This document shows, one piece after another, positions 34,901 through 38,857 of a stretch of 64,000 nucleotides of DNA. The stretch lies in assembly GCA_002422875.1 (NCBI GenBank), contig DITT01000028.1:20861-84860 (forward strand), written 5' to 3'. Source of the DNA: Rickettsiales bacterium UBA6177. Its GTDB lineage: Bacteria; Pseudomonadota; Alphaproteobacteria; Rickettsiales; UBA6177. The translations under genes and the position numbers were made by a program. How positions within the stretch are numbered: the stretch's first letter is position 1; each line of letters starts with the position of its first letter. A model generated the notes under the pieces. The model was not told where the DNA came from. It saw only the letters and a program-made list of their open reading frames with translations, and ran no database searches.

Positions 34901-37900
34901 AGCGTCCTTTACTTCAGGAAAGGACATGAAAATTATAGGTGCATCTGTTATAGGAAATGAAATTTATATCAAATCTGAAGATGGTAAAGTAAGTGTGATT
35001 CCAGTTGAGCTCTATAACGAAGTTAGTAATTGGGGCCGCAGATATTATAATAGTTATAAAGCTCTAGTGCTTTATCGTTCAAGCTTAGAATCATCTTTAA
35101 GTAATATTGAAATTTCTGCAGATGGAGGAATTTTATTAAGTGGTGTTATTTCAAATAGCGCTGCTAATACAGATATTCAAACTATAGGAAAGACTCTTGT
35201 AGAGTCACCTAGCGAATATATACAAATAGAATCATGGAGTCAGAAGAGACGTGGTGGTATAGCGGGATTGTGTGGAGGAAAAAAGACTACATCTAAATTT
35301 TCTTCAGTAATAAATGCGATTACATCGATCGTTCACAGTGTTAAAGATCTTATCTCTATATCAGGAGAAGATCAATATTGGATAGGAGCTGATGTTAAAG
35401 CATATTCTGCAAAGCTTAAGGCAGGATCACCTGAGCGTGAAGCTATGATAATGTTAGCATCAGCAAAAAATGTAAAAGAAATAAAAGTGATGACAAAAAC
35501 ATCTGGTTTTAGTCTCAATTTTAATAATGGCATGATGAATGTAGTTACGTCATCAAGATCAGCTCAAGGCGAACATGTAATAATGCAAATACCCACAATT
35601 TTTCAGGTAGAGGATCAATTTCTTGGATATGCAAATGGTAAATGGATTCAGTTATCATCAAAGATCAAAAGCGATGGTACAGTTGTAATTGATGCTCAGG
35701 ATATAACATTAACAGCAGCTCCAGATATACAGGTAACTTATGCTCATTTAGATAGCTCAGGATTTGGGGTAGGTTTTTCCGATAAGAAAGGGGAATTTGC
35801 TATAAAAGCAGCTTTGTGGAAAAAATCAGCTAATTTTAACACAGTAGAGGAAAATTATAATCAAGTAAGTAGCATTGTAGCAAATTTTATTAAAATGAAA
35901 TCTGATACTATAACTACTTATGGCGCCCTTCTTGATGCTGCAATAATGGATCTTGATGCAAAGATAATTTACCATGGCGTATTAAAAAATAGTATAACAC
36001 AAATAGAAACAAGAGAACTTTTGGAAGCAGGACTAAAGCTTGGAATCAAGAGTAATATAGGTCAGATTTTTGAAGGTGCCAAAGGCATTAAAAATCAAGA
36101 TTATAGTAGACCTGAAGGATATGTAAATTCAGCTTTTGCAGCACTGAAGTTATATGATAATGTTTTAGAGTTACTATCAAAAAATACAAATTACGGTATT
36201 TCAGGAGGAATATGGTTTTATGCTCATTATGAAAGAGAAAAAGTACAAACCACAGCACATATATCGATCCCTACTATTATTAGAGTATCTGAACTTTTAA
36301 ATAGCACTAGTGACACGCTAAAACTTATCGGAACACAGATCAGCTCTTATAATGCGTTCATTAAAACTAAGTATTTGGATGCTAGAAATACAGAAAATGA
36401 AATCAGTAGAAATATTGATAGAAAAGAATTTGATGTAGAAATACCTATTGAAGGCAATGTATCTCCAAGTATTAGTAATATAATTAAAAAGGCAAATCAG
36501 TACCAGAAAATTATTATTAATACTAATATCAATATTGCTGGTCATTTAAGTATGGAAGTTCAAGGACATGCAGATTTAAGAGGTGTATTTATCAGTGCCA
36601 AAAGTATTGATGCTTTTTTTGAAAGTCTTTTACTAGAATCTGTTCAGGATATTATAGAGAATAAAGGCACACTTACATCTTTGGGAATTAATTTTAATTC
36701 TGATGGTTTAACCGGCATGAGTCCAGGCTTTCAAAAGGACAGACACTCTAGGCATGTAGTTGAGAGAATAAGTGCAATAATTGGCGATGATAGCGCACAT
36801 ATAGTTGTAGCGAATGCTTTAAGACTTAATGGTGCGATGATTGCTGCAGCTCAAAGAGATCAAGAGACAGGTAAATACACGGATCACGGAAATTTGGTGT
36901 TAAAAGTTGGTGAATTATTTATTCAGCATATCCGCAACTTTGATAATGGGTATACGCTTGGTGCTTCTATGTCATTTAAACAAAAGATGGATGGCCAGCC
37001 AAAAGTGTCATCTGTAGAACCTACAATCGGAGGGCATAAAAAAGACGGACAGACTTATGCTACAATAGGGAAAGGAAATGTTGAAATTAACGAACATCCT
37101 GAGATACTTGATCAAGCTAATAGAAATGTAAATGAAGTACAATCTTGGAATACTCATTATGATATCAAAGCAATAACTCTATATTATAACAACATTGATA
37201 GAAAAGCGCTAAAAGAAGGAATCCCAGATACTCCAGAAGAATGGGTTAAAGGTGTATCACAATATATAAAATCTACATTACTTCCTAGCTCTAACATTAA
37301 TAAGGATCTAACTGAAGAGCAGTTAAATATAATCAAAGAAAAAGCTGAAGTAAAAATAAAAGAACTTAAAAAGAAAGCTGAAAACTTACCTAAAAAAGAT
37401 CAAGAAGAAATAAAAAGACATAATAAAAAACAAGTATCTGAGTTAATCAAGGTAAAGCAAGATCTAGACGATATCCAAAGTGATTATAGTGAAGGTAAAA
37501 TAACAACAGAAACTACAAAGATAAAAATACTTAAACGCACAGCAGAATTAATAAGAGATACAGGCACAAAATATACAGCATTTGCAGAAGAACATCCAAC
37601 TCTAGCTGAATACGGCCTCTCTGGTGTTAATATAGCAATACAAACAGCCATAGGATCTTTAGCAGGATTTATAAACTCAATTAAGTCAGAAGCTATAGGT
37701 CACGCAGTAGGTGCAGCTATAGGTGAAGAAATATCATCGCTAATTAATGGCAGAGTAGCAGAAGCTGCAACTACTATACAAAAAGCAAATCCTGAACTAG
37801 ATAAAGATGATGCAACAAGTATTGCTACCGGATTAGTACTGGGAGGGGTATTAATCACCTTTGGTACTATGGGAGCGAAACAATTACTCAAAGATCTTTC

Positions 37901-38471: not shown

Positions 38472-38857
38472 TAAAAAAACAAATCGAACATGGATTACTG
38501 TATTATGTAGATCAATATAAGGAATTTGATAATTTATTGGCCTATCTGTCTGAAAGAAAAACAGATCTTGAAGCAATTCAAGATTATATCACAAATGAAT
38601 ATGATACAGTAGAATTAGCAAAATCAGAAGGAAGAGAAATTGACTATGATACAATTCCTCAATGCCTTAAAGAAGGAAGAGAAGTTCTAGAATTACAACC
38701 TTTTCCTTGGGAATGGATAAGGAGCAGCGCTAATGGAATTGGATGCTATACTCCAGAAGATGCTGAAATTTATTCAAAAGAAGAATTAGCGAAAAGATGG
38801 GTTACGTGGATTATAGATACTCTAGAAAAAGAAGCTATTAAAGCAGGTAAAATATAA
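38468..38857 (+). CDS. Putative cognate immunity protein (small acidic protein, translationally coupled)
   Basis: Its ATG overlaps the toxin stop codon (ATGA at 38468-38471). It is 129 aa, acidic, with no signal peptide. The position is typical of CdiI/immunity genes. Confidence 0.5.
   Translation: MIKKQIEHGLLYYVDQYKEFDNLLAYLSERKTDLEAIQDYITNEYDTVELAKSEGREIDYDTIPQCLKEGREVLELQPFPWEWIRSSANGIGCYTPEDAEIYSKEELAKRWVTWIIDTLEKEAIKAGKI

Follow-up and report, generated by a model that had tools for sequence, protein, structure and literature searches.

Introduction

Among the closest described counterparts of the locus studied here is the CdiA-CT/CdiI pair of Yersinia kristensenii ATCC 33638 (PDB 5E3E), a contact-dependent growth inhibition (CDI) system. 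There, a filamentous hemagglutinin-repeat protein carries a nuclease of family PF18431 at its extreme C-terminus (CT), and an immunity protein that is small, acidic and all-helical comes next. His175, Arg186, Thr276 and Tyr278 of the toxin matter for its RNase activity, His175 and Thr276 being invariant among homologs and Tyr278 being often a phenylalanine (PMC5435912). Domains of the PF18431 type are found on CdiA, on Rhs proteins, on effectors of the type VII secretion system (T7SS) and on Bacillus lipoproteins (Batot et al. 2017). This study concerns a 64,000-nucleotide stretch of DNA from Rickettsiales bacterium UBA6177 (contig DITT01000028.1, positions 20,861 to 84,860), referred to here as the window, in which a gene encoding a 2166-amino-acid (aa) hemagglutinin-like protein overlaps a gene encoding an acidic 129-aa protein. 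The locus has in common with the Y. kristensenii system the nuclease family, the conserved His/Arg/Thr/(Tyr or Phe) positions, the location of the domain at the very end of a hemagglutinin-repeat protein, and the small acidic protein, predicted to be all-helical, that comes next.

In Rickettsia, toxin-antidote modules named CRCT/CRCA have been defined, and large hemagglutinin-like toxins have been noted (Verhoeve et al. 2022, PMC9111745); a subsequent report described toxins of this hemagglutinin-like kind, bearing alternative warheads, in Rickettsiales bacterium Ac37b and other Rickettsiales (Verhoeve et al. 2024, mBio, PMC11077975). These toxins resemble the present one in being large and hemagglutinin-like, in lacking CdiB, in having swappable warheads with adjacent antidotes, and in belonging to the mobilome. 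They also come from the same lineage. Ac37b, which is closest for the conjugation (tra) genes of the window, is one of the species cited there for such toxins. A first-pass annotation of the window, made from the sequence alone, had referred to CDI/Rhs-like modules as reported cargo of the Rickettsiales amplified genetic elements (RAGEs) of Rickettsia. Such modules are indeed published, although they were placed at chromosomal hotspots and in 'the mobilome' rather than specifically in RAGEs. The published warheads differ from the one described here: they are rCRCT-1 (of unknown fold), rCRCT-3a (CdiA-CT cd20695 type) and HNH/ENDO VII. A warhead of the RNase A type is mentioned in neither of the two papers, nor is the 129-aa immunity family, and a full-text literature search for the PF18431 family returned no Rickettsiales paper. 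The toxin class is already published for Rickettsiales; what is new is the first RNase A warhead found for this lineage, together with an undescribed immunity family.

More broadly, polymorphic toxin systems in the sense of Zhang, Aravind et al. (2012) have the same layout of a trafficking or filament region, a pre-toxin region, a variable toxin and a cognate immunity gene, and orphan modules and decayed toxins occur here as well. The present locus differs from those systems, including the Rhs/type VI secretion system and LXG/T7SS types that carry PF18431, in that its N-terminal trafficking domain is of no known type.

We consider it probable that the two overlapping genes form a polymorphic toxin/immunity pair with an RNase A warhead, of predicted activity, and that the pair belongs to the cargo of an F-type conjugative element of Rickettsiales. 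The evidence lies in the identity of the nuclease domain, the conservation of its catalytic residues, the swapping of warheads together with immunity genes, the conserved gene neighbourhood, and purifying selection on both partners. According to this reading, the warhead would reach the cytoplasm of cells without the antidote and degrade tRNA or rRNA there, whereupon growth would stop. The producer would be protected by the 129-aa protein from the overlapping downstream gene, which, by analogy with the Y. kristensenii immunity protein (CdiI-Ykris), would bind the basic nuclease and occlude its active site. The most likely target would be competing related bacteria in the same host cell. This does not overturn current views; it is a real and largely expected example of a toxin/immunity pair.

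An RNase A-type nuclease at the C-terminus of the large protein

The two genes and the nuclease domain have the following window coordinates.

31971..38471, + strand: large toxin gene, an open reading frame (ORF) encoding the 2166-aa hemagglutinin-like polymorphic toxin
38468..38857, + strand: small gene, an ORF encoding the 129-aa acidic, all-helical predicted immunity protein of an unnamed family
38103..38450, + strand: RNase A-like nuclease domain PF18431, residues 2045-2160 (Pfam, 46 bits, cut-off 27)
38121-38123, 38169-38171, 38439-38441 and 38445-38447, + strand: predicted catalytic residues H2051, R2067, T2157 and F2159, respectively (alignment to 5e3e_B)

The 6.5-kb large ORF is intact and free of internal stops. 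At positions 38468-38471, the sequence ATGA combines the start codon of the small ORF with the TGA stop codon of the large one, and the two partners have complementary charges (isoelectric points of 9.5 for the basic C-terminal 193 residues of the large protein and 4.6 for the 129-aa protein), which speaks for a toxin/immunity pairing. In all these respects, the ORFs, their overlap and the acidic character of the small protein were as the first-pass annotation had described them. The same type of start/stop overlap is found in the homologous loci L002 and L004. A scan of the toxin locus for promoters and terminators returned fewer sites than shuffled controls.

The nuclease domain was identified by Pfam as PF18431, the 'Bacterial CdiA-CT RNAse A domain' (RNAse_A_bac). 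The CT alone scored 46.0 bits (E 1e-11) and the full protein 43.1 bits, both above the curated gathering cut-off of 27, and the match spans model positions 1-113 of 113. NCBIfam gave only a weak match, to a related RNase A-like lipoprotein model, and a phmmer search of the CT alone against PDB sequences gave nothing meaningful. A profile built from six close homologs did match PDB 5e3e_B, the Y. kristensenii CdiA-CT (E 0.003). In this alignment, H2051 corresponds to His175, R2067 to Arg186, T2157 to Thr276 and F2159 to Tyr278; H2051 lies in the motif HVSKG, R2067 in LVKR (LLNR in the Y. kristensenii toxin), and T2157 and F2159 in IETSFP (IITGYP). All four positions are invariant or conservatively replaced across the six homologs, and H2046 is conserved too. 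A second word-indexed homolog search, with the CT profile, yielded no further matches.

The CT, which the first-pass annotation had been unable to place in any toxin family, can now be named as a domain of the PF18431 CdiA-CT RNase A type. The earlier suggestion of an RNase or nuclease agrees with this assignment, whereas its basis, the paired histidines of HEGCIHKGH, does not, as the predicted catalytic histidine is H2051. The Foldseek comparison proposed at that stage was carried out on an AlphaFold2 model of the CT. The model, computed from four sequences, has a predicted local distance difference test score (pLDDT) of 46.5, with only residues ~111-189 above 58. With this low-confidence model, 5e3e_B and 5e3e_D were the only significant PDB matches, 5e3e_B being the top one (E 1.9e-4, probability 1.0, TM-score 0.54 on the target), and identity to 5e3e over the nuclease domain was ~18% in the structural alignment. 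Given the poor quality of the model, the evidence for an RNase A-like (kidney-shaped, two-sheet) fold is supportive rather than decisive, and the family assignment is based on the catalytic residues together with the profile score. By homology, the warhead is predicted to be an RNase that works without metal ions, as a member of the bacterial RNase A-like family whose prototype is the Y. kristensenii CdiA-CT. This provides a domain name and a predicted catalytic mechanism for a toxin of an intracellular lineage, in which inter-bacterial weapons have been recognised only recently and most warheads are of unknown fold.

The predicted immunity protein and its pairing with the warhead

The 129-aa protein matches nothing in Pfam, in NCBIfam or, by phmmer, among PDB sequences. 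A word-indexed search found nine close relatives. When 1.84 billion representatives were searched exhaustively with HMMER, 85 clusters were recovered at E<=0.001, 34 of them at E<=1e-10. Most members are 100-135 aa long, some being tandem duplications, and the family shares the motifs KYxxFxxLL, EGxEVLxLxPFPxEWI and, at the C-terminus, W..W...LExEAKKAGKL. These homologs, the purifying selection on the small ORF (dN/dS 0.15-0.29; see below) and the E-value of the CT match show that the pattern is not due to chance.

AlphaFold2, with a 37-sequence alignment, predicted the 129-aa protein confidently (pLDDT 88.6; predicted TM-score 0.82) and as entirely helical. The Foldseek comparison of this model, likewise proposed earlier, gave no significant PDB match; the highest TM-score among the candidates was that of 5e3e_A, the Y. 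kristensenii immunity protein (0.44/0.56, at a non-significant E of 2.3). With regard to sequence, the 129-aa protein has no detectable similarity to CdiI-Ykris: the family profile does not match 5e3e_A. A search with P0013 did not reach CdiI-Ykris. Faint matches to CdiI_2 (PF18593), below threshold, were seen in 2 of the 37 family members (best E 0.004). Membership in CdiI_2 was rejected, as no structure match was significant and the search with P0013 missed CdiI-Ykris; remote homology to CdiI-Ykris is possible.

The family is mosaic when the alleles P0006, P0007, P0010 and P0011 are compared with the 129-aa protein. P0006 is identical to it up to about residue 83 and then carries an alternative segment of ~25 residues (YPFNKKYPWG...) that is common to other alleles. 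This segment may be a specificity-determining cassette.

The first-pass annotation had regarded the small gene as immunity-like on account of its position, and the neighbourhood of other family members bears this out. In three short, unrelated metagenomic contigs (L010, L011 and L012), whose family members are 36-45% identical to the 129-aa protein, the ORF ending just upstream is a PF18431 domain, with scores of 70.9, 17.9 and 75.4 bits, respectively; the score of 17.9 bits stems from a 42-residue fragment. As the nuclease family recurs upstream of three such distant relatives, the pairing is conserved. The family is also found downstream of PF18431 in L001, L002 and L004, and two database entries are single gene calls holding both the toxin and the immunity part. 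The two partners also co-vary: at the nucleotide level, L002 and L004 are 84% identical in the CT and 82% identical in the immunity gene, whereas the shaft reaches 54% and the middle segment 40%, and the synonymous divergence (dS) of warhead and immunity gene is similar (0.49 and 0.51). The ratio of nonsynonymous to synonymous divergence (dN/dS) is 0.12-0.29 for the CT and the immunity gene, which indicates purifying selection, these ratios being approximate as dS is near saturation. The conserved neighbourhood, the co-inheritance and the selection together support the prediction that the 129-aa protein is the cognate immunity protein of the RNase A warhead. For annotation, a family of 85 clusters from marine, sponge and other metagenomes with PF18431 as its consistent partner should be useful.

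A further metagenomic entry, P0014 (328 aa), contains in one called ORF an immunity part, a partial PF18431 RNase domain and an immunity part again. This resembles the arrays of orphan toxin/immunity modules that are seen downstream of cdi and rhs loci.

A single in-frame TGA (~9689 of the ENA ERZ25074695 contig), located after ...AEYGLSG, interrupts the orthologous toxin gene of L001. Beyond it, the frame stays open across the hydrophobic segment and on into the RNase domain, and the immunity gene is intact, which is the usual pattern of toxin decay with retention of the antidote. A second immunity-family protein occurs on this contig, P0009 and P0010 both being listed on the same 39,739-bp contig. 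The decay in L001, the lack of CdiB, and reports that most of the large CRCT-bearing toxins of Rickettsia are degraded and that single antidotes outnumber toxins (PMC9111745, PMC11077975) could suggest that the locus of the window is itself a decaying, non-functional remnant of a horizontally acquired CDI-like system that is neither exported nor used. We regard this as highly improbable in view of the intact 6.5-kb ORF, the conservation of all four catalytic positions, the purifying selection on the CT and the immunity gene, and the conserved start/stop overlap.

Exchange of warheads and modules among relatives

The large protein can be divided into the following parts upstream of and including the warhead.

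36297..36659, + strand: hemagglutinin repeat (Fil_haemagg_2), residues 1443-1563 (PF13332, 27.8 bits, cut-off 22)
36813..37244, + strand: conserved pre-toxin core, from NALRLNGA (residue 1615) to GIPDTPEEW (1751-1758) (invariant alignment columns)
37248..37934, + strand: variable middle module, residues ~1760-1988 (hydropathy, composition and module identities)
37935..38468, + strand: toxin warhead module, residues 1989-2166 (~175 aa), where similarity to L004 and to stand-alone CT ORFs starts

PF13332 and PF18431 are the sole Pfam families in the 2166-aa protein, the former in agreement with its earlier description as a hemagglutinin-repeat protein; in the orthologous region of L001, PF13332 scores 50.3 bits. 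The shaft is long, beta-helical and hemagglutinin-like, and is homologous to hemagglutinin-repeat proteins of Candidatus Bandiella and Ralstonia. The pre-toxin core is the last segment common to all relatives, similarity being lost at about residue 1750-1760 in each case. The dN/dS ratio is 0.35-0.40 for the shaft and 0.14 for the core.

Four related loci, in Ca. Bandiella and in other metagenome-assembled genomes of Rickettsiales or alphaproteobacteria, emerged from a scan in which each species was represented by one genome; a fifth, in Ca. Bandiella woodruffii, came from a search of plasmids. The relatives end as follows.

L005 and L007: a WHH-type HNH nuclease, then a SUKH-1 (SMI1/KNR4) gene
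L008: an AHH nuclease, then Imm11
L006 and L013: unnamed toxin/immunity pairs

The RNase A, WHH, AHH and unnamed CTs all come after the same conserved core, and each type of warhead has its own immunity family: SUKH-1 for WHH, Imm11 for AHH and the 129-aa family for RNase A. These are textbook pairings of toxin and immunity protein. Since one and the same core is joined to different pairs in the relatives, the large protein is a true polymorphic toxin, as the first-pass annotation had proposed. A CT that is invariant and contiguous with the repeat region across homologs, which would have spoken against that proposal, was not what the comparison of orthologous loci revealed.

Over residues 1785-1988, the large protein is 6-23% identical to the L004 protein; from residue 1989 to the end, identity rises abruptly to 50-85%. 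The stand-alone CT ORF P0001 starts with MSSITHEQKA, which aligns with residue ~1990 of the large protein. The separate CT domain had originally been taken to begin at position 37890 (residue 1974), which lies within ~15 residues of this recombination junction. The segment in front of the CT was said to be hydrophobic and Gly/Ala-rich, and hydropathy analysis agrees: the two most hydrophobic 19-residue windows of the whole protein, residues 1883-1901 and 1951-1969, are Gly/Ala-rich and lie directly N-terminal of the CT. The middle module thus delimited matches no Pfam family and consists of a Lys/Glu-rich charged stretch followed by these two segments; the middle modules of the relatives likewise have a charged stretch and then Gly/Ala-rich hydrophobic segments in every case. 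By analogy with the two-part CdiA-CT, in which an entry domain precedes the toxin domain, we infer that the middle module could interact with membranes and help the warhead to cross one.

The middle module is exchanged separately from its neighbours. In a sliding-window comparison, the large protein and L004 have core and warhead in common, whereas residues ~1785-1988 are unrelated. L005 and L006 have core and middle segment in common (63-100%) and differ in their warheads, and L007 and L005 have core and warhead in common and differ in their middle segments. The alignments indicate that three modules assort independently: the shaft, the hydrophobic middle segment, and the warhead with its immunity gene.

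One of these relatives deserves a separate description. The 2960-aa protein of L006 (positions 324-9516 of the uncultured alphaproteobacterium contig CAISOX010000112) has the core and the middle module of the Ca. Bandiella protein and ends in a C-terminus of ~250 aa without a Pfam family, followed by an overlapping ORF of ~102 aa, also without a family. The two are a candidate for a new toxin/immunity pair.

Possible export of the toxin

As in CDI systems, the large protein combines a hemagglutinin-repeat shaft with a variable CT, and its gene is directly followed by that of the immunity protein. It resembles a CdiA-type toxin, yet fails three defining features of CDI. Its N-terminus (MEQELENPW...) is acidic and non-hydrophobic and carries no signal peptide, an upstream extension of the ORF is impossible, and Pfam finds no two-partner secretion (TPS) domain PF05860; signal peptide and TPS domain are likewise missing from the full-length relatives L001 and L006. 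A Pfam scan of the window ORFs of at least 100 aa detected no CdiB/TpsB transporter (Omp85 family, POTRA with ShlB), nor was one found in the related loci. The VENN and PT-TG pre-toxin motifs are absent from the large protein, and its one ELYN and only NPN (residue 13) are so short that no meaning can be attached to them; the pre-toxin junction is marked by GIPDTPEEW instead of VENN. In these respects, the locus differs from that of Y. kristensenii. Having neither a signal peptide or TPS domain, nor CdiB, nor VENN, it was rejected as a canonical CDI system, and classical two-partner secretion through CdiB/TpsB cannot be the export route. Pfam also found no PAAR, Rhs, LXG or WXG domain.

This is in line with the statement that 'all Rickettsiales genomes lack CdiB', made in a paper that speculates on the rvh type IV secretion system (T4SS) (PMC11077975). 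The hemagglutinin-like toxins of Rickettsiales could form a distinct delivery class, exported by a route new to filamentous polymorphic toxins, a proposal that we consider rather unlikely, as we do its variant in which the RNase A warhead hits host ribosomes as Ribocin does. Such a class would be marked by the lack of signal peptide, TPS domain and CdiB, the conserved GIPDTPEEW junction and the exchangeable hydrophobic 'entry' module, and the routes may include the F-type conjugative T4SS immediately upstream on the element or the rvh T4SS. If export through the upstream T4SS were true, weapon and launcher would be encoded together on one conjugative element. In any case, the three exchangeable modules and the junction motif in toxins without CdiB sharpen the published question of how such toxins leave the cell.

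Genomic context and possible functions of the pair

Upstream of the toxin gene lies a complete F-type conjugation module comprising TrbI/TraB-like, TraC, TraU, TraN, TraF, TraH, TraG, TraD and TrwC-type TraI proteins. The toxin gene is located between TraD/TraI and the following gene.

47472-48620: phage-type tyrosine integrase (Pfam)

After the tra module, the cargo consists, in order, of an ankyrin protein, an OTU protein, the toxin pair, a 1522-aa ORF, AbiEii/AbiEi, Fic/RhuM and the integrase. The tra genes are closest to those of Ac37b: TraU is 75% identical to the plasmid TraU of that bacterium, and positions 1-26.7 kb of the window are collinear with the tra module of the Ac37b plasmid. 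No tRNA or Rfam match and no convincing att-like flanking repeat was found in the window, and the left end of the element may lie outside it. The first-pass annotation had described the locus as borne by an ICE (integrative and conjugative element). The location between TraI and the integrase agrees with this, but no att site or tRNA gene was found and the tra module is collinear with that of a plasmid. The integrase makes an ICE likely, and an integrase-bearing plasmid is the alternative. The homologous RNase loci L001 and L002 lie in plasmid-like or Tn3-rich contexts.

The location of the pair on mobile elements wherever the surroundings of a locus are available (backbones of ICE or plasmid type, Tn3, ParA, relaxases), the presence of other toxin-antitoxin-type modules (AbiE, Fic) in the same cargo region, and the lack of any detected secretion signal or partner would also fit a pair that acts mainly as an addiction module. 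In that case, the pair would stabilise the conjugative element by post-segregational killing without export: loss of the element would entail loss of the antidote, and the remaining toxin would kill the cell. An addiction module, however, has no need of a conserved hemagglutinin-repeat shaft of ~1750 aa, the maintenance of which (dN/dS 0.35-0.40; core 0.14) suggests an extracellular or delivery function, and it requires an unstable antidote, which nothing here indicates. We therefore regard addiction as the main role as improbable.

The toxin pair is flanked by two putative deubiquitinase-like proteins. Directly upstream, at 29778-31742 (+ strand), is a gene for a protein of 654 aa that has an OTU cysteine-protease domain (38 bits) at its C-terminus. 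Downstream, at 38929-43497 (- strand), the 1522-aa ORF converges on the immunity gene; its sole Pfam signal is a sub-threshold RickCE-like CE-clan deubiquitinase domain (PF22179, residues 83-180, E 0.023), and it may be a large eukaryote-directed effector.

These neighbours, together with the ankyrin protein, look eukaryote-directed, and the organism is Rickettsiales-like. The RNase warhead could accordingly be a host-directed effector that acts in the eukaryotic cytoplasm by cleaving host ribosomes or tRNAs, the immunity protein protecting the producer before export only. A precedent is Ribocin (RbcN) of Pseudomonas aeruginosa, a bacterial nuclease of the RNase A fold to which CdiA-CT-Ykris is the nearest relative in structure (PMC13189344, 2026). 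It has an active site of the same H/K(R)/T/Y arrangement (H/K/T/Y in Ribocin) and attacks eukaryotic ribosomes, cleaving them at helix 69. Ribocin differs, however, in being a small, stand-alone protein that is not PF18431-like by Pfam, and the part of that paper available to us mentions no cognate immunity gene, whereas the protein described here carries its nuclease as a warhead paired with an immunity gene. Furthermore, the swapping of warheads and immunity genes, including the DNases WHH and AHH with SUKH-1 and Imm11, is the hallmark of inter-bacterial conflict systems, and those PF18431 members of CdiA, Rhs and T7SS effectors that have been characterised act against bacteria. A host-directed function is therefore unlikely.

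An antibacterial polymorphic toxin with its immunity protein remains the preferred reading, and several points weigh against it. No delivery machinery was identified, neither a signal peptide nor a TPS domain nor CdiB/TpsB being found in the protein, its full-length relatives or the window. The structural model of the CT is poor (pLDDT 46.5 from four sequences), which makes the fold evidence weak on its own, and the dN/dS values are approximate on account of near-saturated dS. Toxicity and neutralisation, as well as RNase activity and the mode of binding of the immunity protein, are predictions from sequence. The nonsense codon in the L001 ortholog shows that such genes decay. Finally, the organism is probably an obligate intracellular bacterium, whose encounters with competitors would be restricted.

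Several other features of the window were recorded. Next to the integrase, an AbiEii/AbiEi type IV toxin-antitoxin pair (44038-45712, - strand) and a RhuM/Fic-domain protein (46477-47469, - strand) are encoded, and the cargo region is one in which several conflict modules are stacked. The ankyrin-repeat gene (27276-28556, - strand) is bracketed by two paralogous 151-aa ORFs without a Pfam family (26729-27264 and 29127-29674, + strand), which have similar upstream sequences and ~76-80% nucleotide identity (repeats D1 and D4). Beyond the integrase, a direct repeat of ~185 nucleotides (53279-53462 and 59258-59443; 90-96% identical; D3, D5 and D7) surrounds a TolC-AcrB-MFP efflux operon, its right copy overlapping the 3' end of a hybrid histidine-kinase gene. 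This arrangement suggests that the operon was inserted or duplicated between the repeats. To the left of the tra module, at 1392-3836 (+ strand), lies a gene for an 814-aa NB-ARC/STAND ATPase with TPR repeats, which is syntenic with a 'putative ATPase' of the Ac37b plasmid.

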